A stretch of DNA of 64,000 bases from a virus. The position numbers and the translations under genes are program-made. Shown here in pieces: positions 2,888 through 53,824 of the stretch. The stretch lies in IMG/VR virus record IMGVR_UViG_3300009151_009564, positions 9,525 through 73,524 of that record. The stretch is one strand, 5' to 3'. A model generated the notes under the pieces. That model was not told where the DNA came from. It saw nothing but the letters and a program-made list of their open reading frames with translations, and did not search any database. How positions within the stretch are numbered: the stretch's first letter is position 1; each line of letters starts with the position of its first letter.

Positions 2888-3576
2888 TGAAAAGAAACTA
2901 TATAAGTCCGGAGTTTATTTATCAAAAAGTACATGGTAGTCTCAACATGGTTGAACATAGTTCTTTTTTTGGATCGAAAATGTTATCTATTGATGATAGT
3001 GTATCAATACTAAATGATAATATCATTTATTATCAACTTGCTAGTGGTGAGCAGTTAGATTTCAACTCTGAAAGTTCTTTACCACAGGTTATATACGATG
3101 CTGTTTTGGATAAGAAATCAAATCATACTTTAATATTAGACCCAGCTCAAACTGATATTCAAAAGGAAGGTAATGCTGCTTGGATACTAGATGTTAATCT
3201 TAAAAGTGTTTTAACTGATTATATTTTTGCTACATTAAAAAAGTGGCGTACATTCGAGGGTATTAGAAATAATATGACTATTGGTAATAATGTTGACTCC
3301 TCTATAAAACAGTATATTACTGCTAATGTTATTGATAGATATAAGTTTACAAAACTAGAGTTATTTATTAAATCAGTAGATTTAGTAAATGTAGGTGGTC
3401 TTAAATATGATAATGTTTATGATGTTAGTATAGATTTATCAAATAATCTTTTTACTAAGTTTCAAACTATAACTGACTCATATGATAAGGATTTAAGGGT
3501 TAAGTTTTATCAACCAGATCCAGCTGGTTTATATGCTTTTAATTATTATTTTAATTTATATTTTGATAGAGTGTAA
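2887..3576 (+). CDS. Hypothetical protein, probably virion-associated
   Basis: 229 aa ORF coupled (TAATG) to the upstream structural-type gene. Confidence 0.45.
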   Translation: MKRNYISPEFIYQKVHGSLNMVEHSSFFGSKMLSIDDSVSILNDNIIYYQLASGEQLDFNSESSLPQVIYDAVLDKKSNHTLILDPAQTDIQKEGNAAWILDVNLKSVLTDYIFATLKKWRTFEGIRNNMTIGNNVDSSIKQYITANVIDRYKFTKLELFIKSVDLVNVGGLKYDNVYDVSIDLSNNLFTKFQTITDSYDKDLRVKFYQPDPAGLYAFNYYFNLYFDRV

Positions 3577-9226: not shown

Positions 9227-10189
9227 ATGAAATGGACACCCCAACAATTAGCCTTTATACTTTATAACAACCGTTCTGTAGAAGGAGTGGTTCAAAACTT
9301 TTTACCTATTATTAACGGATTTGAAATGATCGATTTAGAAAAAAAACTTGATTGGTGTAAAGGTTTTTATGAACAGAATCAACGATTTCTTGAGATCGAA
9401 TCTTCTAGATTAGATCTAACATCAGATGACGTTATAGTCACTAAACAAGAGTTAGAAGATTTAAGCCAAATAGTATTAGATAGTCATATCAATCTATCAG
9501 GTATAGAGTTGGAATACTTATTAAATCGTGGTATTACCAAAGACATTATAGATAAATATAAAATCGGTGGTTTGTCTTTTATTAAAGATCTTAAACATTT
9601 GGAGATCCTGAACGCTACTTGTCATCCAATACTTAAACCGATTTTAGAAGATGGTATAGAAGGTGGTGGAATAATAATACCGTTATGGAATGGTGATGTG
9701 TTAGAAAACTGTGCTATTAGAAAACTATCGGATATAGGTAAGTTGAAATACTCGTTAGCCTGTCCTGATTTACCAGTCTGGGGGTTGGATTCATTTAATT
9801 CAGGAGAGGATGTTTGGATTTGTGAAGGGTTATTTGATATGATGGCTTTACATAATTTAGGATTTAGAGCAGTTTCGGTATCAAGTGCTATGTGGTCTGG
9901 TCCCCAGTTATGGTCTCTTTTACAAAAGAAACCTGGGTTTATTCATATATTATGTGATAAAGATCAAGTTGGATTAAAAACCGGTTTGATTTTATCAAAA
10001 TTCTTTAATATATCCGGAATTCCAAATCATACATGTATATGTAACTCTGGTAAAGATGCTGCTGAAATATTATTTGAGAAGAAGTTGGATATGGACGATA
10101 TTGATATCATACATATAACAAAGGAAATGATAGAGAAACAAGATGATAGCTTTAACTTCTTAAAGTATTTAGAAAATCGTAGGTTTTAA
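9227..10189 (+). CDS. DNA primase-like TOPRIM protein
   Basis: YLLNRGI, IIIPL, WICEGLFDMMAL, CDKDQVG, KDAAE. Confidence 0.75.
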   Translation: MKWTPQQLAFILYNNRSVEGVVQNFLPIINGFEMIDLEKKLDWCKGFYEQNQRFLEIESSRLDLTSDDVIVTKQELEDLSQIVLDSHINLSGIELEYLLNRGITKDIIDKYKIGGLSFIKDLKHLEILNATCHPILKPILEDGIEGGGIIIPLWNGDVLENCAIRKLSDIGKLKYSLACPDLPVWGLDSFNSGEDVWICEGLFDMMALHNLGFRAVSVSSAMWSGPQLWSLLQKKPGFIHILCDKDQVGLKTGLILSKFFNISGIPNHTCICNSGKDAAEILFEKKLDMDDIDIIHITKEMIEKQDDSFNFLKYLENRRF

Positions 10190-12729: not shown

Positions 12730-13032
12730 TTATTTATTAAATAGTTCGTCTAATATTCCTAATCCTTTAGCAGAGTGATAAGCGCCTGAAGCTAATCTAG
12801 AGAACTGACCTTTTGATTTATATTTTTTAGCTTCTTCTCTTACTGCTTCTTCACTCCATTTTTTATTTCTTGGAAAAATAGATTGTTGAAGTCCTCTTTT
12901 TTGAATATTTCTATATAAGTCAGGATTATTACGTCTTAACTCCTCATATGATTTATATTTAGAAGCTTTATCCCTAAGTTCTTCTATTTCCGTCTTTGAT
13001 TCAAAAACTTTGAATGTTTCAATATGTTTCAT
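12730..13032 (-). CDS. Small protein with CTS-like N-terminus and endonuclease-type helical repeats
   Basis: MKHIETFKVFES; ASKYKSYEEL / AKKYKSKGQF repeats. Confidence 0.6.
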   Translation of the reverse strand: MKHIETFKVFESKTEIEELRDKASKYKSYEELRRNNPDLYRNIQKRGLQQSIFPRNKKWSEEAVREEAKKYKSKGQFSRLASGAYHSAKGLGILDELFNK

Positions 13033-13075
13033 ACCATATATATTAAAAGTGAAAATAATATTTAATATATATGAT

Positions 13076-14182
13076 ATGATTGTTAATTTAAAAAGTCAAA
13101 CCGAAATGTCTGGTTTTTATATAGTCTTTCAAGGATCTACTAATTTAGAAAGACCTGGAATCTATGGAATATCACATCTTTTAGAACATTGTGTTTGCCA
13201 TAGCTTTGAAAATCTAAGAGAGGAACTAGAAAGGGATGGTATAGACTGGAATTTTTATACATCTTCAAATGAGATAGTTGGTTATTTTACTGGATTGGAT
13301 AGTTATTTAAATAAATGGAAATCCAAACTGTTAGACTTGATTGGGGAATTCAAAACAACAAAGGATAAATTTGAAAACGAAAAGAATATAGTTCTACAAG
13401 AATATACAAATTACTTTGCGGATCAAGGTGAGGCTCATGCCTTGAACTTATCCAGAAAGTTATTTAAAGATTTTGACCCAATAGGAGTTAAAGAAGATTT
13501 AGAAAAACTAAAATTTATGGACGCTCTTAACTTTTGGGAACTTCAGTTTTCAAATCCTTCCAAAATAATTAATATATCAGCAAGCAGTCCATTTAAATCT
13601 GATATAGAATTCTCCATACCAAAAAATGATAGAACTTATAAATTCGGTCCTTATAATGATGTTGTTTTAGAAAAGATGAATGATTATGGTGATAAAGCTT
13701 CAGTTATGATGGTTGGTCCGTTAGCTGATTCCGACTTTGCGTATATTTCATTTATTAATGGTATGTTATCAACTGGTTTATCTTCTCCTTTATATACTGA
13801 AGTTAGAGAGAAAAAAGGTTTAGTTTATTATATTAGATGTTCTCAATCTAGGTTGAATAATCAGGGTGTTACTTCAATAACAACTCAAACATCGACTGAT
13901 AATGTTGAAAAGGTTTATGATGCGGTCAAAGGGGTTTTAGATAATCCTAAAAAGTTTATGACTAAAAGTAGGTTTGAGACTATTAAAGATTCTCATCTTA
14001 TAAGACTTAAAAAAGAAAAGATAAATAGATTTGCTAATATTCAAAAATGGATAACTCCACCAGAATGGTCTATATCTTCTATAATAGAAACTGTAACATT
14101 AGATAAACTAATGGAGGTATATGATAAGTATTATAAATCTGATGATTTTTATTTATCGAGTGATAAAAATGAATTTAAATAA
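13076..14182 (+). CDS. M16 family zinc peptidase (insulinase-like)
   Basis: GISHLLEH inverted HxxEH, SSPLYTEVREKKGLVY; start at 13076 follows TAATATATA. Confidence 0.9.
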   Translation: MIVNLKSQTEMSGFYIVFQGSTNLERPGIYGISHLLEHCVCHSFENLREELERDGIDWNFYTSSNEIVGYFTGLDSYLNKWKSKLLDLIGEFKTTKDKFENEKNIVLQEYTNYFADQGEAHALNLSRKLFKDFDPIGVKEDLEKLKFMDALNFWELQFSNPSKIINISASSPFKSDIEFSIPKNDRTYKFGPYNDVVLEKMNDYGDKASVMMVGPLADSDFAYISFINGMLSTGLSSPLYTEVREKKGLVYYIRCSQSRLNNQGVTSITTQTSTDNVEKVYDAVKGVLDNPKKFMTKSRFETIKDSHLIRLKKEKINRFANIQKWITPPEWSISSIIETVTLDKLMEVYDKYYKSDDFYLSSDKNEFK

Positions 14183-15503: not shown

Positions 15504-16232
15504 TTAAAAATTCATAATTAAGTATTCTGTCCCCATTAAACCATTATTATGAATAATTCTACAATCTTTATACCACTCTTTCATTTCATCAAAAGAGTAA
15601 TAACTTAAAACAAATCTACCTTTAATATTTTTTAATATCTCTGATAACTCATAATGTGATTCATTCGTAAATGGATGATTAATATAATAGTGTTCTCTTT
15701 CTTTATAAGGTGGATCTAAATAGAATAAAGTTTCTTTACTATCATACTTACTTATAACGGATTGATAGTCTTGATTTAAGACTTCATTAATCTTGTCTAA
15801 ATTGAAATTGTTCCATTTGAGTTTCATTTTGAATACTTCAAACTCACTATCTCCTCTCCACTCACCATCAAGTATTTTATATCTCGAATAAGAACAGCAA
15901 AGTAAGATTATCCAGTTAATAGTCCATTCATCATCTGTCCAGTTGTTAATACTCCAATCTTTTTGGATTTGGTAATATCTTTTGGGGTTAGCTTTTTCGT
16001 TTTGTATTTTATTTACGAAATAGGGATCTTTTGATTTACTAAAAATTAAATAGTTTAAGCGATTAATATCGTTATAAATGAAATTAGTATTGGGATATTT
16101 TGATAAATCTAAGCAAAAGAAAATACCAAACATTCCTCCGAAAGGTTCAACAAATGTTGAAATATCCGTAGGTATGTTTGGTATTATAAAATTGGAGAAC
16201 TTAGATTTTTCACCTAAATAGGGTATAAACAT
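15504..16232 (-). CDS. D12-class N6-adenine DNA methyltransferase (Dam-like)
   Basis: YLGEKSK, FVEPFGG, YNDIN, FYLDPPY. Confidence 0.85.
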   Translation of the reverse strand: MFIPYLGEKSKFSNFIIPNIPTDISTFVEPFGGMFGIFFCLDLSKYPNTNFIYNDINRLNYLIFSKSKDPYFVNKIQNEKANPKRYYQIQKDWSINNWTDDEWTINWIILLCCSYSRYKILDGEWRGDSEFEVFKMKLKWNNFNLDKINEVLNQDYQSVISKYDSKETLFYLDPPYKEREHYYINHPFTNESHYELSEILKNIKGRFVLSYYSFDEMKEWYKDCRIIHNNGLMGTEYLIMNF

Positions 16233-16244
16233 ATACTCTATATA

Positions 16245-16811
16245 TTAGAGAATTTCATCCACCACTCCGAGCTCGAGTGCTTCTTCAGCTGGCATGAACC
16301 AATCAACTTTACCATCATAGATTTCTTTCAATTTCTTTCTGGTGATTTTAGTCTTTTCGATTGTCATGTTTTCAATCTGTTTCTGAAGACGTTTAGACTC
16401 TTCCAATCTTTCTTCCATTTGCTTAACAGTACCAATCACTCCACCTGATACCTGATGGTATAGTGGGGTTGAATACTTGTGAGCAAATCTTCTGTGTCCA
16501 TGAATAAGGATCATAAATCCACAACTCATAGCTGCTCCGGTTACTATAGTGTGTATTGGAGTTTTTGATTTCTCCATAACAGACAATAGACCAAAACACT
16601 GATAAACAAGTCCGCCATAGGAGTCAATATAAATATTGATTGGCTTTGGTTTATAGTTTAAACCATAAACATCGTAAAGCTTTTTAAGATGCTCGTCATC
16701 CTCATTTATTTCGAGGATGTTCTTAGTTAAATCTCCCATAGATGCTTGATCTACTTGTTTGTTTAGATAAAGATTTCTTTCCTTTGGTAAGGGTAAATTT
16801 CCTGTTGCCAT
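16245..16811 (-). CDS. clpP: ClpP-like serine protease
   Basis: IYIDSYGG, GAAMSCG (catalytic Ser), YHQ (His), DWFMPAEEALELGVVDEIL. Confidence 0.85.
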   Translation of the reverse strand: MATGNLPLPKERNLYLNKQVDQASMGDLTKNILEINEDDEHLKKLYDVYGLNYKPKPINIYIDSYGGLVYQCFGLLSVMEKSKTPIHTIVTGAAMSCGFMILIHGHRRFAHKYSTPLYHQVSGGVIGTVKQMEERLEESKRLQKQIENMTIEKTKITRKKLKEIYDGKVDWFMPAEEALELGVVDEIL

Positions 16812-16849: not shown

Positions 16850-17533
16850 TTAGTTTAGTAACTCAATTTTACCACGACAAATTTCTTTATAAGTTGCTGT
16901 TCTACCGGTCTCATGATCGATAACCACATCTTCTTTTACTCTAAAAGTTCTTTTTTTATCTGACCTTTCAGAGTTTCCAATTTGGTTATATCTATCAGTA
17001 TAAGTTTTTTTATTGAATTTTTCTTCTTCAACAACTTTTAACTTTTCTTCAAGTCTTGTCCAAGCGATTAACTCATTTTCCTTTTGATTTCTGGTGTCTT
17101 GTACCTTAACCTGTGTTCCACTAGGGACATGGGTTAATATGACGCAGGTTTCGACCTTATTGACGTTCTGACCCCCTTTACCACCACTACGGGTATATTG
17201 GCGAGTTACTTTAGAACGGTCAAGTTTGTATTCAAACTTTTTGCTTGGATCAGTTATAGCAACTGTTATTGTAGATGTTTGGGTTCTACCGTTTCGTTCA
17301 GTAGGTGGGATGCGAATCCATCTATGACATCCTGATTCGTTTTTGTAAAACTTATTTACTCCATCACCGGTTAGTCAGATAGAAGCATAACCTTCTCTTT
17401 GTTCGTAGATTTTACAATCGAACCCTTGGTTTCTTGCTGATTTACAGTAGATGTTTAATGTGTCTATGACTAATAGTTTAGAGTCACTTCCGCCTTCTCC
17501 GGCGCGAATTTCTAGTATAATTTCTTGTTTCAT
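16850..17533 (-). CDS. Class I peptide chain release factor, RF1-type, lacking domain 1, with in-frame TGA at codon 53 (absent from ORF track)
   Basis: Manual translation: MKQEIILEIRAGEGG...YASI*LTGDGV..ESGCHRWIRIPPTERNGRTQTS...SGGKGGQNVNKVET...IGNSERSDKKRTF..VIDH; TGA at 17377-17375; same frame to TAA at 16852-16850. Confidence 0.92.
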
Positions 17534-17592
17534 ATTTTTGTAATTTTTTTAGTTAATAAATGGTAAAAAAATTACTTATGCTACAAGAATGT

Positions 17593-17793
17593 TCATGGAT
17601 GACCAAAACGGTTGATTCTAGTACGATTGGATTTTAATTGGGATTCTGTTTCAGCGAGTTTAAGCCAGTCTTGGAACTTTTTGAACTCTTCAGGACTTAA
17701 TTTTTCAGCAATAGTATTAGCCACTTCGTTAGTTAAACGAGAGTTGTTACTTATTGTAACCATTTGTGGTAATATTTCTCTATAATGTCCCAT
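17593..17793 (-). CDS. Small hypothetical protein upstream of the release factor
   Basis: 66 aa ORF after a TTATATATA element. Confidence 0.5.
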   Translation of the reverse strand: MGHYREILPQMVTISNNSRLTNEVANTIAEKLSPEEFKKFQDWLKLAETESQLKSNRTRINRFGHP

Positions 17794-17844: not shown

Positions 17845-18405
17845 TTAGCCGGTTGGTGGTTTATAATCTGGTTTTATTTTTGTTAAAATATGTATTATAT
17901 CGTATATATCTTTAGTCTGTTTTTTGGGTGTTCCAGATCTTAAAGATGATATTCTTGCTTTTGTTTCAATGATTTCAAATGGGTGGTGAAATAGAAATCC
18001 ATCCTTTTCAATCACTATACTGTTATTCAGTGGAAAGAAATCAACATTATATCCTAATTTATAATTAGGATAATAACCAAGTAACTCAATCTCTCCTTCC
18101 ATTCCCGGATATCGGTTATGATATAGCTTTACATCTGGTTTTTCTTTAACCAAGAAGTCAATATCTTCTGGTAGTCTATCTAATAGTCCAAAAGCATAAA
18201 GAGCTGCTGAGCCGGTTAATACAGCCTTTCCTTTCCATTGCTTAATAATACTCCAGTGTTTATGATTCTGTATTATATTTTTTTTTCTTAATCTTTTAAG
18301 ATCTGGTGTAAATTCTGGGGATTCTCCTAATACCATTGATAATTTTATATCTCTAATATCGGATTCTAAATCTTTTAGTTGTGGGGGTAAGGTTATATTA
18401 ATCAT
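17845..18405 (-). CDS. Nucleotidyltransferase-like protein
   Basis: LTGSAAL..G...DIDF, VDFF, KD.YD pattern; N-terminal RDIKLSMVL motif. Confidence 0.6.
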   Translation of the reverse strand: MINITLPPQLKDLESDIRDIKLSMVLGESPEFTPDLKRLRKKNIIQNHKHWSIIKQWKGKAVLTGSAALYAFGLLDRLPEDIDFLVKEKPDVKLYHNRYPGMEGEIELLGYYPNYKLGYNVDFFPLNNSIVIEKDGFLFHHPFEIIETKARISSLRSGTPKKQTKDIYDIIHILTKIKPDYKPPTG

Positions 18406-19440: not shown

Positions 19441-20160
19441 TCAACTAAAGTTTAGTTCTTTTATTCTATTCCTAATAACAAAAACTGATTTATTTATTAA
19501 TACAGACATTTGTTTGGGTGTTAACCCATCATTAATCATTTCTCTCAATTTATCCTCATCTATACTAACATATCTAGAAGCTTTTTTACCGGTTCTATAA
19601 CTTGCCTTCTCACTAATGAGTTTTTTTGTTTCATCTTTTTGTGATCTACCAAACATTCCATTTTTATTACCACCATGTACTTTTTTATGTTTCTCAACAT
19701 AATCAATCATTTTTTTATCTGCCTCTTCAATGCCATATAATTCAACCCATTTATTATATAAAGATATACCGTACATAGGATTTTTTGTCCCACTAACTGA
19801 ATTTCTTATTTTTTCAATTGTTTCTGGTTTATGTTTTATTAATTTGTTTGATGAAATTGTACTATTTCTACCACCTTTTTGAAGATTGTATCCATACATT
19901 GGATCACTTGATCTATAGTAGTCAATCCAATATTTTTCTCTTTCGTTTAATAATTCGAAAATATTTTCACCATCTATTGTCTCTAGTATTGAAAATTCAA
20001 ATTTATGTTTGAGTAATGCTCTGTGAAAGTAAGTTTTAGATCCACTTTTGGAGTGGTACATGTGTTCCCTTTCTCTTATTTTAAGATCTTTTTTTGTCTG
20101 TCCGATGTAGTATTTGTTTTCACAAATACAAAATGCGTAATATATAATTCCATATTCCAT
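19441..20160 (-). CDS. GIY-YIG homing endonuclease with NUMOD3-like repeats
   Basis: GIIY..KYYIGQT, R.REH, EREKYWI, GYNL, KNPMYG, NGMFG. Confidence 0.85.
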   Translation of the reverse strand: MEYGIIYYAFCICENKYYIGQTKKDLKIREREHMYHSKSGSKTYFHRALLKHKFEFSILETIDGENIFELLNEREKYWIDYYRSSDPMYGYNLQKGGRNSTISSNKLIKHKPETIEKIRNSVSGTKNPMYGISLYNKWVELYGIEEADKKMIDYVEKHKKVHGGNKNGMFGRSQKDETKKLISEKASYRTGKKASRYVSIDEDKLREMINDGLTPKQMSVLINKSVFVIRNRIKELNFS

Positions 20161-20220: not shown

Positions 20221-21312
20221 TTATGAAATCTCATCACCCGTCTCCTTATAGGCTGGGTTAATAATCTTCAACCTAAGTGGAGTACCATCAACAGCTTTCC
20301 TATCGATATATGGACGAATTACTACGCCTTCACGAATATGAAGTGTCTTACCAGACACAAGTTCCATTCCCTTACAAAGGTCAACTACTTCTTTTGGAAG
20401 AAGGTAATCAATCTTTGTCTTGTGAATACCCTTTTCTGGATCAGAATAGATAACCACTTCTTTCTTATCAAGAGTAAGAGTACCATCGAATACTATAGGG
20501 ACCCACATAGTCTTAAATACTTCCGGAACCATATCGTAAGGGATAGAATCCCCATTGAACCTAATGTCGAATAGACGAGCTGTTGGTTTTGTTTGTCCGT
20601 AAGAGTATCCAGATTGAATAGGTACTACTTCACCAAATACCTGAATAATGCCCATACCAGACCAGTTAGACTTAATCTTATTAACCAATCCGTCATTTTT
20701 AGCAGCTTCCCAGTAAGAGTTACCCTCAGCATCTTCGAGAACTAAACCCTTTTTAAGTTGTCCTTTAGACGATACAATAGTTTCTCCGGTCTCAAGGTTA
20801 TGAGCTAGGATGAACTGAGAACCGTGTACTTTTTCGGTAATGACTACCCTTTCACCATCGATAAGTTCGTTAACATAAACACCAGCGTGTTCACAATCGT
20901 GATGACCGATGAAAGGCATATCGAATGATTTAACCTTACCAGCAAGTTGAGCTGGGATTGGTGGTTCGTACTTGGTAATACCAAGTAGTTCAGCAACATC
21001 TTCGTCCAGACTGATCTGATCGAAATTTGGTACAAGAGAGTTTGGAATGATAATACCACTTGAGATTTCACCACGAAGGCGAACTGCTTTAACACGGTCT
21101 TTGTTAGGACCGCTAAGGTACTTCTCGTATTCGGTTTTAAGTTGTCCGGTAAGTACAGACTTTTCCGGTGCGAAGATAACTTCGTCACCATCGTTATAAA
21201 GTCCTTTCTGGACTACTACTTGGTATGATCCAACACGACCCAACATTAGGGCATCTGCGTTTGGATGTGTAAAAAGTGCGATTTTTTGTTTTGATACTCT
21301 GAAATTACTCAT
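20221..21312 (-). CDS. RNA ligase, DRB0094/Rnl5 family
   Basis: N-terminal HPNADAL..VVQKG.Y..GD, LRGEISSG, ITKYEPP, motif I TEKVHG, FGE, FDI, REGVVIR, LKIINPAY. Confidence 0.9.
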   Translation of the reverse strand: MSNFRVSKQKIALFTHPNADALMLGRVGSYQVVVQKGLYNDGDEVIFAPEKSVLTGQLKTEYEKYLSGPNKDRVKAVRLRGEISSGIIIPNSLVPNFDQISLDEDVAELLGITKYEPPIPAQLAGKVKSFDMPFIGHHDCEHAGVYVNELIDGERVVITEKVHGSQFILAHNLETGETIVSSKGQLKKGLVLEDAEGNSYWEAAKNDGLVNKIKSNWSGMGIIQVFGEVVPIQSGYSYGQTKPTARLFDIRFNGDSIPYDMVPEVFKTMWVPIVFDGTLTLDKKEVVIYSDPEKGIHKTKIDYLLPKEVVDLCKGMELVSGKTLHIREGVVIRPYIDRKAVDGTPLRLKIINPAYKETGDEIS

Positions 21313-22651: not shown

Positions 22652-25600
22652 ATGGCATCAACATTATTTTCAAAACCTATAGTATCTAAAATACCTACAT
22701 CGACTTTAACTAAAAATACGACTTATTTAAAATCTATTGCTAATAAGCAAAGTAAGTTCTATAGTTCAAAGATCCTTAATTATGTTGAGCCTGTTAATAT
22801 TGGTTCTTTTGTAAAAACTGCGTTTTGGAGCGAGATCAATACTAATTTTAACTATGGTGATACTGTATTTATAATCAATGGTAATTATGACTCTGATAGT
22901 CTAATATCAGTTGATAAATATGCTCCAAATACAACTGGATATAAAGTATTGGGAGTTGACGGATGTAAGATCATCTTGGATATTGATTATACAGGAGTTC
23001 TTCCATTTCAAGATACAGATGTTGAGCAATATATTAAAGTAAATCATATCTCTTCTCAAAGACAGTTTGATTATATCAATAGTATATTAACTCCTATTAA
23101 TGTTACTCCATTTAGTGGAATGTATTCAAAATTCTTTGGTAACGTTCCTTATGGTAGTTTGACTGCTTCATTATATACAAATGATATAATATTTTCTTCT
23201 GGTACTTTTAGTGGAAACACATCTTATAGTGGTATAGGAGTAGGTTTTTTTGTTAGGGATGATTCATCAACTAATACATGGGTAAACATTACTTCTCAAT
23301 TTTTAGATAATAGATTAGGTGGTGTTAATCCAGACTATACAAACGATGGTAGAATTTATATTGTTGGTGAGGATTTCACATACAATGGTACTGATTATAA
23401 ACAAAGATTGGTATATGAAGACGTTAATAATAAATGGATTATAGACACGGTTTATAAACAACCAATAATATCTAAGTTAAATTTTAGATATGGTACATTT
23501 AAGGGAACACATAATGATGGTGTATTTGGTAGTGAGAATAAAGTCGCAACGTGGAATAATGCGACTTGGAATTCTGGTATATTAACAAATGCCACATGGA
23601 AGTCGGGTTCAATGAACTCAAAGTCTAATACCGGAGACCGTTCATATTATTCACATTTAAAAAATGGTAAACCAGTTCAAACATCGGATGTTTCAAATAA
23701 CAATGGTTATGGGTATAACTTTATAATAGATTCTGATGTTCAGGGTGGTACATTTTTAAATGGGTTATTTGACAACTGTAATATAGGTTTATCAAGTACT
23801 TTTTCTGCCCTTGATTCTTACTTTGGTATTACTCAATCACCTAGTGTTTCTATTAAGAAAGGACAGTATACTCTTTGTAATATAACTGACTCAAGTCTAT
23901 TAAATGGTTTATTTACTAATACGGATATAAACAATACTAATATTGTAAACTCCAAGATAGTTAATAGTCAACTTAATAAGAGTACAGTTGATACAAGTGA
24001 CTATAACTCTGATAGTGGTATACAAGTAATAGGTGCTGATATATGGTCATATGATTCAAATCCTGGTATTTCTGGTATATCTCCAGATATATCTACTACA
24101 ATAAGAGGTATTTTAAAACTTTACATATCTGCGAAAGATTTATTTAAGTTAATCCCCGGTGATAGTTTTTATATAACTAAACTAAATAAGGATTATGTAT
24201 TATCGTCATTAACAAATGATCAAAAAGTTTATTTGCCAATAGAAACAAGATATACTTTAGATACTTATTTTGATTCAAGTTTAAGCTCTAAGACTATAAC
24301 AGTTAGTTTAAAGACTAAAATGGATAATATATGGAAGACTTATGTTACTGGTACAACAACTACTGTTAATACATTAGTATCAAATAGTCAAGTATATGAT
24401 TCAATTGATATTGATTGTAGTGATTTTGGATATTACTATTCTACATCAGGTAATCCAGTTTATAAGTCGTCTATCCTAGGTCCAATTAATCTATCTGATG
24501 TTAATAACTTATTTTCTAATACTTATTTATATGACTCTGATTTTAAAGATGGTATTTTCAATAACTCTAATTGGATTAGTGGTAATAACTTAAACTATCA
24601 ACAAAACCAAATTAAGAATCTTACGTCTGATGTATTAGACATTTCTTTATACACTTCATTAGATTCATTTATAGTTAAACTAAACTATGATCCAATGAAT
24701 AGTGCTTATTCTATTCCTAGTTTTGATACTATTAACGGTGAGTATGTTTGGTTAAATAATATTACATATGTAAATGGTACTTTTAGTGTATCACTTGATG
24801 GTAGATATAAAGTTAACGGTTTGGATAGTCATCTTCCACCATTTATTGCTCCTTACTGGGTTTCTTTAAGATTGTTCCCACAAGACACTACAATGTCTGC
24901 TTTGGGGGTTACATCTAGTGCGGGATCTTATAAGGTAATAGGTGCTGAAAATAATACTTATGCTTCTATTGATAAGTTTATCATAAAGAACTCTACAATA
25001 AGTTCTGGTTTATTTAAGAAAACTGGTATTGTAAATAGTATAGTATCAAGTAATGAATTTGATAATACTGATACCAATTTGGTAATATCAAATAATAACA
25101 TACTTAGGTTTATTAATATTATATTCAGTACCAATAAAAATACTATTAATGATGGTGTTATTTATAAGTCACACGTAATAAACACAACTTGGAATAATGG
25201 TGTTCTATTCAATAGTATTTGGAATGGTCCTTTATTTAGTAATGGGGTTGTTAAATCAAGTTATTGGTTAAATGGTACATTTAATAGTGGTAAGTTTTAT
25301 GATAGTGGATTAACATCCTCTATTGTTCTTGATTATGACTCTGTATCAAGATATCAAGCTTGGTTAAATGGTACATTTAGTATAGGTGAGTTTTATAACT
25401 CAGTCTGGTTAAATGGTACTTTTAATAATGGTCGTTTATATAAGTCAACATGGTATGGTGGTATATGGAATAATGGAGTATTAGGTTCTAATAATCTTAG
25501 TTTATCTGATACTACATTTGGTACACTTGCTCCTCTTCCTTATTCAGCTACGGTGAGTTATTGGAATAATGGTATAGTAGAGAATGCTCTTGTTGGTGGT

Positions 25601-28600
25601 GATGGTTTAGTTTACTGGTATGGTGGTAAATTTAACAAAGGTGAGTTTACTAGTAATGGTACGTCATCTACTAACCAGTCTATTTGGTATAATGGTGATT
25701 TCAATGGTGGTAAGTTTACCAACTTAGCTAGATGGAAAGGTGGTAACTTCTTTAATGGTAAGTTCTTATCATATTATGGATATAATAATGTATCTCCTAC
25801 TAACTTTTCTACATATTCAACTGATTATGGATGGGAAGGTGGTAGTTTCTATGGTGGGGTATTTGGTAATGCTAATACGGGTACTAACTCTGTTTGGTAT
25901 TCTGGTGACTTTAATGGTGGTATATTCCAAGGAAGATTTTGGAATACCGGATTATTCTACAATGGTACATTCTTAGGTAGTGGTAGAGTTAGTGCGACTC
26001 CTTCTTCAGTATCATCTATAGGTGAGTTTGATTTTGCTAACTCATTTACATCATCGTATTATGGTTTATGGAACTCCGGATATGTTTCTGATAAAAAGTA
26101 TGAGGTTAAGACTAAAGAAAGAGTGTTTACTCAGTTGGTAAGAAAGGTAGATGAGAAGAAGATAAATATAAGTGTAAATATGTCAAATGTCTTATGGATG
26201 GATGGTATGTTTAATCACAACTTTGGTAATATACAAGATTCATTATTCATAGGTGGTACTTTTTCTAATGGTCAGTTTACTCGTGGGGTATTTAATCCTT
26301 ATATAGATCAAAACTTTACTGGTTCATTCTCTAGATCTTCGTTTAATACACAATCTTGTGTATGGACTGGTGGTATATTTGCTTCAGGTTCGTTCTATTA
26401 TTCAGAGTGGCAAAATGGTATATTCCAAGATGGATATATGTCTGGTGCTATTTGGGATAATGGTCTTTGGAATTATGGATCTGCTGATAATATTTACTGG
26501 AAAGGGGGTCGTTGGAGAAATGGTAACTGGAATGGATCTCCTTATGATTCAACATTAATATCGACATATTCTACTCCTAATATAATGAAGAGTGGTAGGG
26601 AAAAAGATTTGATATTGAATATATCAAATGCCTTAGGTACATCGTCAATACATATAATAAATGTATTTAGTGCTTCAGTGACTCCTATACAGATTTTATC
26701 TGATATACCAGTGGGTTCATTGGGTAGTACAGGAAGCTGGACTTATTCACATGAAACTTATTATGGAGTATTATATTATAGTGGGTTTGCGGGGACTCCA
26801 CACTATGATTACCTTGCTTGTTCAGATTGGAGAATTGGTTCTACATTTAGTTATATTACCGCAACAACGTCAACATCTATATCAACTGGTGTTGTGACAG
26901 ATTCAAATGCTTATACTAAAGGGGGTACTATGTCAGCATCGAGTGGATCATCTTCATATGACTCCACTAATAGGTATTATGGTTATAATATAAATGCGAC
27001 TGCATCGGCAAATACACCACCAAGTAGTAAGTTATATGCTGTAAAAAGTTCTGGAGGACCCACTACTAGTGTGTTTGTCGATACCGCAACAACTTATACT
27101 GTTAAATTACAGGTTACGGTTGAGTTAACGCCAACAGTTTCTATTGAAGTTGGGTATGGTGGTAGTGTACAAACATTTACATTATCGTCAGACCATTGGG
27201 GTTGGACAACTAATACTACTGGTTATTCATATCTTGGTGTACCATATACCATAACCAACCACTACGATTATTATTATCCAAAGTTATATAACTTAACATT
27301 CACTATTAACACAACAGACGCTTCTCTTGCGTCTCCGGGTGGTCAACAATTTTATATTAAGAAGACATCCAATGGTATAATGAGGTTATTAAGGGGAGAG
27401 ATTACCGAAAGGTTAACTGAGTATCATGATACTTATAATAATACATTATATAATGGTATAGTTGGATCTACAGTATCTCTACCAAATGATAATCATTTGG
27501 CTTTGACCGCAGGTGCGTCTGATGGTAATGTCGTAAGTATTGCTTATGGTAATGGTGTTTTCCAATCTGGAATTTGGGAGAATGGTGTTTGGAATAATGG
27601 ATATAGGGCTTCTGATTGGTTTGGAACAAGTGATACATTAATATTTAGTGATGTTAATCAAAGTATGACATATCAAACGGACACGTCAACTGCTTGGAAA
27701 AAGAACTGGATCATAACCTTAGTTTCGTTAGGTTCTATGAATAGTTTATCCATAGGTGATAAAGTATCCATCGGAAATATTGTTGGTATTAATATAAATG
27801 GTAGTAGAGTTCTTATAAAAGATTACTATACAATAGTAGATATTAATAACACAGTTTCAACTGATTGGCCTAATGGTTACCTTAAAGTAAGTTTAACTAC
27901 AAACTTCCCATTAAGACAAATTGTTAAAGACTCATCATATCACCTTATATATGTAACTAAAAATGTTTGGTTGTCTGGAGCGTTCTTGAATGGTTATTTT
28001 AGAGGAGTATGGAATACTGGATTATTCCAAGGTTATCCAAACATAACAGAGATGCAGGACACTCACTGGATTGATGGTAAGTTTAATGGAGGTCATTACA
28101 TTTCAAATAATGTACCAGCTAGTCTTACATTACCTTCATATAATACTGGTGTAATACAAAACTTTACATTTATAGATAGAAATATAGCTGATCCTTATAA
28201 CTTCTTATACGAATCTTGGATTGATGTAAATTATACAGCTGATTCACAATCTAATTTGTATCAAGATACTATCTATTGGGAGCAAGGTACTGGTTATTAT
28301 TCTATTAATGGTGTTAGTAGTAAACCAAATCTTAATGGTTTAATTACATACGATGTTTTATCTAGCTTATCAACGTTTAGGAATGGATATGATACTAGTA
28401 GTAAGGATTATAGTTTAGGTGTCAAGTGGACAAAGTATGATAATTATTTACCAGAAGGAAGCTTTAATAACCTCTTTAGTAAAAGTATACATTCACTTGG
28501 TTTAGATAACTTCTATAACGACGGATGGGATATACAATCGTGGGCACAAGGGTCGACTGGGGTTTCAGTTTTAGATCTTGGTATTTATGGGTCTTGGAGT

Positions 28601-29362
28601 TTATATCCAGAAGATTTTGTCCTAGAGAATACAGATAATACTTTAAAATATATATCAAGTACACATGCGGAGGTATATAGCACCGGTGGGGCGACTGCTT
28701 GGCCATCTTCTGCAATACAGACTTATACAATATTGAAAAATTCAAATACTACCAATATACCAGTTAAAAGGTATTCTATGATGGAGTATAATTTGATAAG
28801 TTTCAAAGGATTTACCGGACCGGATCCTGTTCCGGGTGGATATAATCACGCTAGGAGTGTACATAATAGTCCTTCTTTCTATCCACCTGCTATTAACACA
28901 CTTTCATTCCCAGCTACTTGGTCTATAAGTCAGTTAATTGCTAATCCAGTGTATAGTTCAGATCCTATAAAGAGAGAGTATTTTTATAACAAACACTCTT
29001 TATCAATGATGTTTGTCGGTGGTGGTATAGCAACATCACCAGCTGATTATTATCCACTTACAATTCAGATGGATAACTTATCATTCTATGAAGTAGATAT
29101 GATTCCATTCTTCCAATATTTTGTTGCTTATGATGAGTATGCGAATACTTCATTAGCTATTGATATGGCTATTAAAACACCATACTCAGCAGTTGCTCCA
29201 CATATTGATTATGGTAGTGGAGCATTTAGTTTCATTGGTACAGTAGATATTGTTATTGATTCCTCTGGGGTTGTATCAAGTGGAGCAGGTTCAGTTGGTG
29301 GTTCAACTTTAGGGACAACAACAACCACATGGACTACATATTTATCAGCTCCTACTTTTTGA
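22652..29362 (+). CDS. 2236-aa putative virion protein with W/F-x-x-G-x pentapeptide-like repeats
   Basis: Long tracts such as WLNGTFNSGKF, WYNGDFNGGKF, WKGGRWRNGNWNG; S/T-rich; TAATATATA upstream. Confidence 0.55.
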   Translation: MASTLFSKPIVSKIPTSTLTKNTTYLKSIANKQSKFYSSKILNYVEPVNIGSFVKTAFWSEINTNFNYGDTVFIINGNYDSDSLISVDKYAPNTTGYKVLGVDGCKIILDIDYTGVLPFQDTDVEQYIKVNHISSQRQFDYINSILTPINVTPFSGMYSKFFGNVPYGSLTASLYTNDIIFSSGTFSGNTSYSGIGVGFFVRDDSSTNTWVNITSQFLDNRLGGVNPDYTNDGRIYIVGEDFTYNGTDYKQRLVYEDVNNKWIIDTVYKQPIISKLNFRYGTFKGTHNDGVFGSENKVATWNNATWNSGILTNATWKSGSMNSKSNTGDRSYYSHLKNGKPVQTSDVSNNNGYGYNFIIDSDVQGGTFLNGLFDNCNIGLSSTFSALDSYFGITQSPSVSIKKGQYTLCNITDSSLLNGLFTNTDINNTNIVNSKIVNSQLNKSTVDTSDYNSDSGIQVIGADIWSYDSNPGISGISPDISTTIRGILKLYISAKDLFKLIPGDSFYITKLNKDYVLSSLTNDQKVYLPIETRYTLDTYFDSSLSSKTITVSLKTKMDNIWKTYVTGTTTTVNTLVSNSQVYDSIDIDCSDFGYYYSTSGNPVYKSSILGPINLSDVNNLFSNTYLYDSDFKDGIFNNSNWISGNNLNYQQNQIKNLTSDVLDISLYTSLDSFIVKLNYDPMNSAYSIPSFDTINGEYVWLNNITYVNGTFSVSLDGRYKVNGLDSHLPPFIAPYWVSLRLFPQDTTMSALGVTSSAGSYKVIGAENNTYASIDKFIIKNSTISSGLFKKTGIVNSIVSSNEFDNTDTNLVISNNNILRFINIIFSTNKNTINDGVIYKSHVINTTWNNGVLFNSIWNGPLFSNGVVKSSYWLNGTFNSGKFYDSGLTSSIVLDYDSVSRYQAWLNGTFSIGEFYNSVWLNGTFNNGRLYKSTWYGGIWNNGVLGSNNLSLSDTTFGTLAPLPYSATVSYWNNGIVENALVGGDGLVYWYGGKFNKGEFTSNGTSSTNQSIWYNGDFNGGKFTNLARWKGGNFFNGKFLSYYGYNNVSPTNFSTYSTDYGWEGGSFYGGVFGNANTGTNSVWYSGDFNGGIFQGRFWNTGLFYNGTFLGSGRVSATPSSVSSIGEFDFANSFTSSYYGLWNSGYVSDKKYEVKTKERVFTQLVRKVDEKKINISVNMSNVLWMDGMFNHNFGNIQDSLFIGGTFSNGQFTRGVFNPYIDQNFTGSFSRSSFNTQSCVWTGGIFASGSFYYSEWQNGIFQDGYMSGAIWDNGLWNYGSADNIYWKGGRWRNGNWNGSPYDSTLISTYSTPNIMKSGREKDLILNISNALGTSSIHIINVFSASVTPIQILSDIPVGSLGSTGSWTYSHETYYGVLYYSGFAGTPHYDYLACSDWRIGSTFSYITATTSTSISTGVVTDSNAYTKGGTMSASSGSSSYDSTNRYYGYNINATASANTPPSSKLYAVKSSGGPTTSVFVDTATTYTVKLQVTVELTPTVSIEVGYGGSVQTFTLSSDHWGWTTNTTGYSYLGVPYTITNHYDYYYPKLYNLTFTINTTDASLASPGGQQFYIKKTSNGIMRLLRGEITERLTEYHDTYNNTLYNGIVGSTVSLPNDNHLALTAGASDGNVVSIAYGNGVFQSGIWENGVWNNGYRASDWFGTSDTLIFSDVNQSMTYQTDTSTAWKKNWIITLVSLGSMNSLSIGDKVSIGNIVGININGSRVLIKDYYTIVDINNTVSTDWPNGYLKVSLTTNFPLRQIVKDSSYHLIYVTKNVWLSGAFLNGYFRGVWNTGLFQGYPNITEMQDTHWIDGKFNGGHYISNNVPASLTLPSYNTGVIQNFTFIDRNIADPYNFLYESWIDVNYTADSQSNLYQDTIYWEQGTGYYSINGVSSKPNLNGLITYDVLSSLSTFRNGYDTSSKDYSLGVKWTKYDNYLPEGSFNNLFSKSIHSLGLDNFYNDGWDIQSWAQGSTGVSVLDLGIYGSWSLYPEDFVLENTDNTLKYISSTHAEVYSTGGATAWPSSAIQTYTILKNSNTTNIPVKRYSMMEYNLISFKGFTGPDPVPGGYNHARSVHNSPSFYPPAINTLSFPATWSISQLIANPVYSSDPIKREYFYNKHSLSMMFVGGGIATSPADYYPLTIQMDNLSFYEVDMIPFFQYFVAYDEYANTSLAIDMAIKTPYSAVAPHIDYGSGAFSFIGTVDIVIDSSGVVSSGAGSVGGSTLGTTTTTWTTYLSAPTF

Positions 29363-50414: not shown

Positions 50415-50487
50415 GGTTCCATCTTTCAATGGATCAGGAAATGGAGCTTCTACCTCCACAATACAGGTTCGAATCCTGTTGGAACCA
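50415..50487 (+). tRNA. tRNA-Arg(UCU)
   Basis: GGTTCCA/TGGAACC acceptor, TGGAG-CT TCT AC-CTCCA anticodon arm, ACAGG-TTCGAAT-CCTGT T arm; CCA not encoded. Confidence 0.9.
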
Positions 50488-50489
50488 CA

Positions 50490-53594: not shown

Positions 53595-53763
53595 GTTCAA
53601 CTTAGTAATCGGTATTATTTGTGGTTTGGTAGCGACCTTACATACTTTCTATGGTTTAAATCATGGATTTGATGATAAAACTACTTTTCACGCAAGTATA
53701 TCAGGATTTTTATCTGGTTTAAACTTATTTATTTATATCAGGTCGGGTGGCCGAGTGAAGTAG
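53575..53763 (+). CDS. Small two-TM membrane protein whose 3' end overlaps tRNA-Cys
   Basis: Two hydrophobic segments; last 23 nt lie inside the tRNA. Confidence 0.5.
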   Translation: MKWNSPKFNLVIGIICGLVATLHTFYGLNHGFDDKTTFHASISGFLSGLNLFIYIRSGGRVK

Positions 53764-53812
53764 GCGTAGGATTGCAAATCCTATAACGGTGGTTTGAATC
53801 CATCCCTGACCT
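53741..53812 (+). tRNA. tRNA-Cys(GCA)
   Basis: GGTCGGG/CCTGACC acceptor, TAGGA-TT GCA AA-TCCTA, GGTGG-TTTGAAT-CCATC, U discriminator. Confidence 0.88.
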
Positions 53813-53824
53813 CAAATCTTTTTT

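Follow-up and report, generated by a model that had tools for sequence, protein, structure and literature searches.

A candidate readthrough-controlled, RF1-type release factor gene without domain 1 in a huge phage, and its recoded relatives in phages and bacteria

Why would a release factor (RF) gene be interrupted by a stop codon? The question is raised by a 64,000-nucleotide stretch of viral DNA (positions 9,525 to 73,524 of IMG/VR record IMGVR_UViG_3300009151_009564; this whole stretch is referred to as the window), in which a minus-strand frame of 227 codons runs from ATG at 17533-17531 to TAA at 16852-16850 and contains a single internal stop, TGA at 17377-17375 (codon 53, context ATC TGA CTA ACC). 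A preliminary description of the window had pointed to this frame, which was absent from the list of open reading frames (ORFs) and broken solely by the TGA, and had proposed an RF1-type gene (PPT, GGQ) controlled by stop codon readthrough. Its coordinates and context were confirmed, and the comparative evidence presented here supports the proposed control. The TGA is neither an error, nor a pseudogene lesion, nor a sign of an alternative genetic code, and it is probably a programmed readthrough site through which production of the phage factor would depend on the termination capacity of the infected cell.

The ORF list lacked this frame because there is no Met among residues 54-227; just a 52-residue N-terminal ORF and a 32-residue ORF starting with TTG were listed for it. 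A separate start of the C-terminal part was also rejected, as codons 54-227 have no ATG. Homology was present both 5' and 3' of the TGA, and RF motifs (LEIRAGEGG, GDGV..ESGCHRWIRIPPTERNGRTQTS and GGQNVNK) together with profile matches bear out the earlier statement that both sides are conserved and carry no other lesions. The parts of the gene are as follows.

17534..17573, minus strand: A-rich leader without a Shine-Dalgarno (SD) sequence, upstream of the ATG.
17378..17533, minus strand: codons 1-52, start of RF domain 2 (a strand, a helix with GGSD at its N-terminal tip, and the first hairpin strand).
17483..17494, minus strand: codons 14-17, GGSD at the helix tip, equivalent to RF1 G116..E119 (G14 aligned with G116 and D17 with E119).
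17366..17422, minus strand: codons 38-56, beta-hairpin and recoding hot-spot of the family (AlphaFold2 strands and sites of relatives).
17375..17377, minus strand: in-frame TGA, codon 53 (ATC TGA C), the proposed programmed readthrough site.
16853..17374, minus strand: codons 54-227, remaining domain 2, GGQ domain 3 and domain 4, without ATG.
17315..17317, minus strand: codon 73, Ile at the position of RF1 Gln181 (RF1 alignment).
17300..17308, minus strand: codons 76-78, PPT, the PxT tripeptide of RF1 (RF1 alignment).
17168..17176, minus strand: codons 120-122, GGQ catalytic motif (from the sequence).
16850..16852, minus strand: TAA, the true stop of the RF gene.

The best NCBIfam family for the product was RF1 (NF001859, 174.6 bits, E 2.9e-51), and Pfam recognized both a PCRF (E 3.7e-20) and an RF-1 domain (E 1.6e-23). 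Curated RF1 cut-offs were missed (174.6 vs 400 bits for NF001859 and 166.8 vs 423.25 for TIGR00019), as were those of the RF2 profile TIGR00020 (113.5 bits, cut-off 370; the window factor has PPT instead of SPF), the PrfH profile TIGR03072 (80.8 bits, cut-off 166.65; again the tripeptide is PPT) and the ArfB profile NF006718 (34.3 bits over 33 residues only, cut-off 100). Unlike ArfB, which consists of a GGQ domain and a C-terminal tail and has no codon-recognition domain, the window factor showed homology to domains 2/4. Its GGQ domain (PF00472) scored 83.3 bits (cut-off 35) over residues 100-207, and PCRF (PF03462, 73 bits) was matched only at profile positions 100-194 of 194, the domain 1 half being absent. 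The best match in PDB was Thermus thermophilus RF1 (E 4.9e-33), with an alignment from residue 105. Because of this late alignment start and the partial PCRF match, the start of the protein is placed at the start of RF1 domain 2. Six codons before the ATG there is an in-frame TAA, and therefore no domain 1 can be encoded in frame. A 66-residue ORF further upstream (17593-17793) had no Pfam match at E 1e-3 or better and was rejected as a detached domain 1.

An AlphaFold2 model built on a 27-sequence alignment was confident (predicted local distance difference test score 90, predicted template modelling score 0.73) and consisted, in this region, of a long helix (16-36) followed by a beta-hairpin with strands 39-46 and 49-56. 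In the alignment with T. thermophilus RF1, P76-P77-T78 corresponded to P184-V185-T186, Thr86 to Thr194 and Asp17 to Glu119; Ile73 was found at the position of Gln181 and Gln85 at that of His193. In ribosome-RF1 structures, the RF1 residues equivalent to GGSD have a role in reading U1, and Gln181 has one in reading the third base. Within the family alignment, GGQ was invariant (as in all 81 sequences tabulated) and Asp17 almost invariant, the position of RF1 Gln181 held Q, V, I, L, N, H and other residues, and the dominant tripeptide was PPT, with SPT in four members and PST, PDT or PPN in a few. One phage record, LR745208, apparently lacked the PPTE stretch in its tblastn alignment.

We asked whether the TGA is genuine. 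A check of the base, as the preliminary description had advised, showed 17375-17377 unchanged in contigs from four sequencing runs of four studies (one of which may be the window's own source), and the stretch was carried by 20 freshwater or other aquatic metagenome runs from 11 studies, with no RNA-based run among those listed. A variant strain differed by 12 substitutions in the RF gene (nine synonymous, three not) and one added codon, and kept the TGA; codons 1-52 alone had nine substitutions, seven of them synonymous. Substitutions were classified for this close strain only, because synonymous sites are saturated at the 40-65% protein identity of distant relatives, which restricts the comparison of nonsynonymous and synonymous changes. 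At position 17312, all four runs had A where the window has G (plus strand), a synonymous difference (CGC to CGT, Arg74). Together with the homology on both sides of the stop, these data support the assignment of the window gene as an apparently intact RF1-type class-I release factor gene that lacks domain 1 and is under selection.

We then examined the site in relatives. DNA was obtained for 100 loci (the window, six phage records, 92 IMG/VR loci and one metagenome locus), which correspond to 84 distinct sequences; they were selected by similarity to the window RF (for example, the best 80 of 385 from IMG/VR), and the fractions given for them describe this sampled neighbourhood. Recoding signals, all within codons 38-55, were found in 75 of the 84 sequences: in-frame stops only in 53, a +1 frameshift at a CTT-stop site in 20, an in-frame stop and a +1 site together in one (L248), and in-frame stops with an extra -1 break before GGQ in one (L017/L018). 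Six sequences were uninterrupted and three were odd (a deletion in L227, TAG plus TAA in L236, and an unaligned 5' part in L245). The 80 in-frame stops, which occurred in 55 sequences (one stop in 30 genes, two in 25), comprised 76 TGA, four TAG and no TAA, and were distributed over six alignment columns: 38 (5), 39 (2), 40 (18), 45 (11), 49 (2) and 53 (42). A stop beyond these columns was seen in one case only, L236. The column of the window's codon 53 had TGA in 39 and TAG in three of the 82 aligned relatives; TGA was present there in LR756502, LR756501 and LR745206, for instance, and LR756501, LR745206 and LR756504 also had TGA at columns 40 or 45. Some genes mixed their signals: L198 and L201/L202 had TGA at column 45 and TAG at column 53, and L248 carried a +1 site (CTT TAG C, columns 54-55) in addition to its in-frame TGA at column 40.

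The idea of a recent pseudogene or an assembly error draws on the fact that a single nonsense codon is the simplest lesion, and a few relatives (L017/L018, L227 and L236) do have extra lesions. We give it almost no credence. The TGA is retained in the four runs and in a diverged strain, the window gene has no further lesions and its changes are mostly synonymous, 42 of 82 relatives at 40-65% protein identity have a stop in the same column, and the type of stop (TGA or TAG only) and the base that follows it are non-random. A TGG or other sense codon at the site, which would have argued for this explanation, was not what the runs showed, and TGG was found at column 53 in none of the 82 relatives. 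Thus, run coverage, the tally of 84 relatives and the column counts effectively refute it. In L017/L018, which came from different samples, two in-frame TGAs are accompanied by a one-base deficit just before the GGQ codons (around 3340-3360; GGAAGGG compared with GGAAAGGG in relatives), so that a -1 shift is needed; this break is either decay or a second recoding event.

As a control, a scan with a single RF protein gave 80 metagenome loci, mainly cellular full-length RF1, and an in-frame stop within the match was found in none of them. Most of these loci had about 40-130 or more open codons upstream, which fits domain 1. The scan also yielded one further +1 member (L102) and approximately eight domain-1-less forms without recoding. 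Six metagenome loci (L127, L136, L155, L157, L161 and L163) were domain-1-less and RF1-like, with PKT, PST or PTT tripeptides and no recoding signal.

The base after the stop was also conserved. UGA-C and UGA-A are weak termination contexts. In agreement with the leaky stop context proposed earlier, the base 3' of the 80 in-frame stops was A in 42, C in 36 and G in two cases and never T, i.e., A or C in 78 of 80. TGAC is listed as a weak termination context in the available text of a 2025 survey of prfB (Prince et al. 2025, PMC12421855). The more specific proposal of UGA-CUA as a readthrough signal did not hold: TGA recurs at codon 53, but the CTA after it is not conserved, the next codon in relatives being CTA, CTG, ATA, ATT or ATG. 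Each of the six recoding columns was devoid of TGG (0/82). By comparison, a conserved Trp column (72) had TGG in 61 of 82 relatives and never TGA. The feature that is kept is therefore a stop, not a tryptophan, in weakly terminating contexts. Database proteins gave a different picture: among those of 225-229 residues that seemed uninterrupted, 59 of 72 had W at column 53. The W of the closest such protein (P0002) is TGA in the contig DNA; for short AT-rich contigs, gene prediction had evidently settled on code 4, printing Trp for the stop. On long contigs, the called proteins were C-terminal fragments of 155-182 residues only.

Two other large window proteins matched, among 50,697 phage records, only LR756502, LR745206, LR756504 and LR756501/3, and the best matches of the window RF were the same uncultured huge phages (44-58% identity). 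According to the accessible part of Al-Shayeb et al. 2020 (PMC7162821), these are genomes of 634-735 kb in the 'Mahaphage' clade, with predicted replication in Bacteroidetes; of release factors, that text says that huge phages encode 1 and 2, and nothing more. The window DNA, whose genome is known as one 73.5-kb contig, is from a huge phage of this kind. Two complete relatives, LR756502 and LR745206 (642 and 635 kb), were rebuilt from public records. Exactly one gene with an RF-1 domain was present in each of five complete huge-phage genomes (5/5), and in every case it was the domain-1-less RF.

We used these genomes to address the genetic code. Greedy ORF coverage of the window was 0.895 under code 11 vs 0.926 with TGA as sense, the code 4 ORFs being more numerous but shorter; the respective values were 0.902 vs 0.900 for LR756502 and 0.895 vs 0.896 for LR745206. 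TGA terminated 16 of 86 genes in the window, 121 of 830 in LR756502 and 151 of 798 in LR745206 (15-19%). The sole long gap in the gene map of the window was the RF gene, which was also the only ORF of at least 120 residues rescued in the 73.5-kb contig by reading TGA as sense (none in a TAG control); in LR756502, six ORFs were rescued vs seven for the TAG control. An alternative code was rejected on coding density, on the TGA-terminated genes and on the lack of TGA at conserved Trp columns. Selenocysteine or pyrrolysine was judged unlikely, as the stop shifts among six columns, alternates with many sense codons and is TAG or TGA; no scan for selenocysteine insertion sequences was made. At true TGA gene ends of the contig and the two complete relatives, the next base was C in 6 and T in 111 of 285 cases (TGA-C at five of 121 ends in LR756502 and one of 151 in LR745206). 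A backup TAA within five codons followed 50-52% of TGA-terminated genes in the two complete relatives and 25-31% of those with TAG or TAA as their stop (Fisher p 1e-3 and 3e-4), suggesting that UGA leakiness matters in these phages. Thus, the stop in the RF gene is real, position-specific, conserved, particular to this gene and placed in a context biased toward leakiness.

ARAGORN found two transfer RNA (tRNA) genes in the contig and 46 and 59 in LR756502 and LR745206, respectively. The window tRNAs were tRNA-Arg(tct) at 50415-50488 and tRNA-Cys(gca) at 53741-53813, both on the plus strand; tRNA-Trp was absent from LR756502, and LR745206 had one (CCA). The preliminary description had suggested a search for a tRNA with a UCA anticodon; ARAGORN detected none in the contig (a 73.5-kb fragment), LR756502 or LR745206, and a canonical opal suppressor was rejected for these genomes. 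A phage-encoded, possibly non-canonical tRNA might still decode UGA at a certain stage of infection, the factor being made only then. In recoded phages, RF1 adjoins suppressor tRNAs, and standard tools often miss such tRNAs, as stated in the accessible text of Borges et al. (bioRxiv 10.1101/2021.08.26.457843). The relatives contain odd tRNA-like genes: one in LR756502 (435101-435174) has a 6-nucleotide anticodon loop, TTTTCA, and looks more like a damaged Glu/Lys tRNA, and two in LR745206 (407364-407437 and 419836-419923) were assigned a four-base ('gtag') and a two-base ('gt') anticodon by ARAGORN. These three non-canonical genes could hide a suppressor, and the tRNA-Trp(CCA) of LR745206 may be added to them. 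We regard this scenario as very unlikely. Apart from the RF gene itself, TGA-sense candidates in the contig and LR756502 did not exceed the TAG control, TGA terminates 15-19% of genes, the canonical UCA tRNA was not found in the three genomes searched, and efficient decoding of the stop as sense would destroy the +1 frameshifting of GC-rich and bacterial family members.

These frameshifting members were analysed separately. Sites of the +1 type occurred in 21 of the 84 relatives, mostly GC-rich, and had the form GGAGG, three nucleotides, CTT-TGA or CTT-TAG. In relatives with 51-64% GC, the shift was at column 39 (CGG AGG GGT CTT TGA followed by C or G, with TAG in some), and in three AT-rich lineages the site was TGC CTT TAG C (columns 53-55), with no SD; all +1 sites were at columns 39 or 53-55. 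The cassette of the GC-rich relatives matches the prfB motif (CTT T, the stop and C, placed three nucleotides after an SD-like element) as described in the available text of Prince et al. 2025 (PMC12421855). The window gene has no SD-like element with a 3-nucleotide spacer and CTT-T slippery site, and its frame continues in phase 0. The preliminary description had called the control of this gene unlike RF2 frameshifting; given an RF2-like cassette at the homologous place in GC-rich relatives, that distinction was not upheld. The prfB site is located in a domain that this family does not possess, whereas the cassette of the relatives is in domain 2; it therefore originated independently.

Leaders were A-rich and SD-less in all nine AT-rich relatives shown, and GGAG-type SDs were present in GC-rich ones. 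Bacteroidia ribosomes use no SD pairing (available part of PMC10798248), and prfB frameshifting is inefficient in Flavobacterium johnsoniae (available part of PMC12421855). By analogy, the SD-independence of Bacteroidia might be the reason why SD-less lineages rely mostly on readthrough. A maximum-likelihood tree (quick search, arbitrary outgroup root) was computed from the sequence 3' of all sites. It contained a family clade of 80 rows (Shimodaira-Hasegawa-like approximate likelihood ratio support 88), with the window inside a readthrough clade of 17 rows (support 97), and the readthrough and frameshift labels needed at least 6-7 changes on it, some form of recoding being retained.

The family is not limited to phages. 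A scan of one genome per prokaryote species gave 80 bacterial loci (not deduplicated, and with some small contigs of metagenome-assembled genomes (MAGs) that may be phage), of which 74 were recoded. A CTT-stop +1 site was present in 64 (43 TGA, 21 TAG; including L313, L304, L303, L320 and others of L264-L340) and in-frame stops in 10; one locus was uninterrupted, four were only partly aligned and one had a different kind of break. Myxococcota were prominent (six named Nannocystis species, the Minicystis rosea chromosome and Pyxidicoccus fallax), and other carriers were Thiobacillus denitrificans, Variovorax, Achromobacter, a Cupriavidus plasmid, and MAGs labelled Planctomycetota and Acidobacteriota. 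The bacterial genes begin at an EIRAAEGG motif, lack domain 1 and have PPT. The Nannocystis protein is named 'peptide chain release factor-like protein' at NCBI, where its 196 residues represent the +1 part only. At E 1e-20 or better, 2,526 database proteins matched. These sequences represent a large unannotated family of recoded, domain-1-less RFs in huge phages and bacteria.

How the codon is decoded, in which direction regulation runs and what is sensed, we infer from these comparisons. Under programmed readthrough, most ribosomes would terminate at the codon-53 UGA and release a 52-residue peptide, and a fraction would read UGA-C, presumably via a near-cognate tRNA, and produce the 227-residue factor. 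Readthrough would compete with RF-dependent termination, such that slow termination at UGA would yield more factor and fast termination less. The RF gene would then be both sensor and effector of termination capacity, a readthrough counterpart of the prfB +1 loop; this prfB-like logic is suggested because the frameshifting relatives support it.

The codon that is sensed bears on what is reported. RF1-like by its motif, the factor would be expected to leave a UGA sensor reporting host RF2, and the TAG variants would be read by the factor itself. The preliminary description had proposed a sensor of host RF2; an output inverse to UGA termination fits this view, but it is too narrow for relatives with TAG or with both TGA and TAG (L198, L201). 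Since the PPT motif predicts that UGA is not read, feedback at UGA must be indirect. In the version that we prefer, the phage factor would take over UAA (and UAG) and free host RF2 for UGA, including the sensor codon. RF1 and RF2 share UAA, and a UGA sensor could therefore feed back on an RF1-type factor; in the 'communicating vessels' image of PMC7530605 (section 14, in the text available), a UGA sensor reports total termination capacity for this reason.

The TAG sensors, which occur with the same recognition loop, and the presence of TGA and TAG in one gene (L198, L201) raise the possibility that the factor reads both codons. Feedback would then be direct: a truncated factor with widened or changed specificity would read UGA (and UAG) and end its own synthesis, as RF2 does. 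Consistent with this, the sensor may be TGA or TAG within one family whose recognition loops are near-identical, all variants would regulate themselves if the factor read both codons, the position of RF1 Gln181 is variable (I in the window), and four members have SPT for PPT. In addition, TAG was used at 21 of 64 bacterial +1 sites vs none of 8,164 in prfB (available part of PMC12421855). However, PPT is a PxT tripeptide of the RF1 type, the profile hidden Markov models favour RF1 (174.6 bits) over RF2 (113.5), and none of the tabulated residues correlates with a TGA or TAG sensor. Codon specificity cannot be read from sequence, and on balance we consider direct autoregulation unlikely, if clearly ahead of a suppressor tRNA.

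The stop could also act without sensing anything, as a constitutive attenuator that keeps the dose of a potentially toxic RF very low. Any early leaky stop would lower output, and RF overexpression is harmful in B. subtilis according to the available text of PMC12421855. Several observations make this improbable. TAA, which would be an equally good attenuator, was found in none of the 80 in-frame stops; relatives swap in another stop-dependent mechanism at the same place; the device is essentially limited to the RF gene in two phage genomes; and the dose could be reduced more simply by a weak promoter or start site.

Several points weigh against the programmed readthrough that we favour. Ordinary readthrough rates are about 1e-4 to a few per cent, and 25 of the 55 relatives with in-frame stops have two stops in series; product from these would therefore be next to nil, except where termination is strongly impaired or a suppressor has gone unrecognized. 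Very low output from double stops suits a backup or stress-induced factor. No conserved RNA structure was detected 3' of the stop in eight sequences (z -2.5 to +0.8). L017/L018, L227 and L236 look decayed, and some interrupted copies are perhaps non-functional. The selection of relatives by similarity, the non-canonical tRNA-like genes and the need for indirect feedback at UGA, all described above, belong to the same list.

Genes around the RF gene were identified with Pfam. In the window, it is flanked by a ClpP-like gene and a small ORF without a Pfam match, and no conserved gene neighbourhood was found by Pfam among 53 neighbouring ORFs at 12 loci.

16245-16811, minus strand: ClpP-like protease, 38 nucleotides downstream of the RF gene (Pfam).
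15504-16232, minus strand: Dam-type N6-adenine methyltransferase (Pfam).
17845-18405, minus strand: AbiEii-like nucleotidyltransferase, a weak match (Pfam).
19441-20160, minus strand: GIY-YIG/NUMOD3 homing-endonuclease-like gene (Pfam).
20221-21312, minus strand: ATP-dependent RNA ligase (Pfam).
13010-14182, plus strand: M16 peptidase (Pfam).

No RtcB match was found among the 10 ORFs neighbouring the RF gene; the nearest comparable feature noted was an ATP-type RNA ligase (PF09414) at a distance of 2.7 kb. Two further features were a very long, TGA-terminated ORF in the window (22652-29362, plus strand, 2,236 residues) and, at the single locus L018 (3695-4033), a cREC_REC 'cyclic-phosphate processing receiver' domain (PF20274) downstream of the RF gene.

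Stop-codon-dependent recoding of RF genes is textbook translational autoregulation, and to our knowledge it is known in bacteria for prfB only, and only as a +1 frameshift. In prfB, an SD-like AGGGGG precedes CTT TGA C by three nucleotides. The window gene resembles prfB in being a class-I RF gene with an early stop whose slow decoding would permit the full protein, and its GC-rich phage and bacterial relatives carry the same GGAGG, 3-nucleotide, CTT TGA cassette. Unlike prfB, it would use in-frame readthrough and no frameshift, its product is RF1-type (PPT), and its site is in the domain-2 hairpin, whereas the prfB site is in domain 1. TAG is the sensor in a sizeable minority of the family, again unlike prfB (0/8,164, as given above), and the available text of the same 2025 survey reports no programmed frameshift in prfA in over 12,000 genomes (PMC12421855).

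A precedent for stops passed in a viral termination factor gene is that of Mimivirus and Megavirus, whose RF gene has internal stops passed by readthrough and frameshift, interpreted as bacterial-like autoregulation (Jeudy et al. 2012, PMC3521657, available text). The huge phage likewise encodes its own termination factor, which would be translated past an internal stop. However, the Mimivirus/Megavirus factor is of the eRF1/aRF1 type and belongs to viruses of amoebae, and the present one, shared by phages and bacteria, is an RF1 of bacterial type that lacks domain 1; in addition, readthrough and frameshift are mostly alternatives between lineages in our family, occurring together in L248. Phages recoded at TGA (code 4) likewise have an RF1 amid many translation genes, and in their 'code-change module' RF1 is in the standard code and the remaining genome has in-frame TGA and a suppressor tRNA (Borges et al., 10.1101/2021.08.26.457843, as far as its accessible text goes). 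Genomes of the window type are the inverse, being standard throughout with TGA in the RF gene only.

Recoding of PrfH is not known to us. PrfH (RFH) shares with the window factor the absence of domain 1 and the presence of GGQ and a codon-recognition-like domain. It differs in its SXY tripeptide (PMC1586002, also PMC6514570; available text), where the window factor has PPT, and in its pairing with RtcB, a family without a match among the 10 neighbouring ORFs scanned. The plant eRF1 circuit (PMC5397192, available text) also controls the level of an RF via readthrough of a stop that reports termination efficiency; it is eukaryotic and based on the 3' untranslated region and nonsense-mediated decay, whereas the window gene has its stop inside a bacterial-type coding sequence. 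Atkins et al. 2016 (PMC5009743) state that an early in-frame UGA followed by an ORF in the same phase occurs in no RF2 gene, and they describe a UAG/RF1-gene counterpart as unknown. The present family would supply these missing cases, with UGA/UAG readthrough as well as RF2-like +1 sites (UGA or UAG) in an RF1-type gene. We found no earlier description of a recoded domain-1-less RF family in the literature searched, which did not extend to subscription-only papers and supplements.

A wider interpretation, which we offer tentatively and hold less probable than the readthrough site itself, is that these genes form a third class-I RF lineage of bacteria and huge phages: domain-1-less, with PPT, and serving as a backup terminator made when ribosomes linger at UGA or UAG. 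Such a factor may act independently of RF3 and would be induced by stress or infection. If this is correct, the AT-rich phage branch would realize the readthrough autoregulation that had been proposed for RFs when no prfB sequence was yet available. The codon range may also have changed, to all three stops or to UAA only, which would let a huge phage take over host termination.

The family also has practical implications. Public records name only the C-terminal ORF of approximately 190 residues or split the gene, and for short contigs gene prediction moves to code 4 without notice, so that the stop appears as Trp. The family extends over hundreds of phage and bacterial sequences, and its culturable carriers (Nannocystis, Minicystis rosea, Thiobacillus denitrificans and Pyxidicoccus fallax) make the proposal directly testable. 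For phage biology, these findings suggest that the largest known phages bring their own regulated termination factor.

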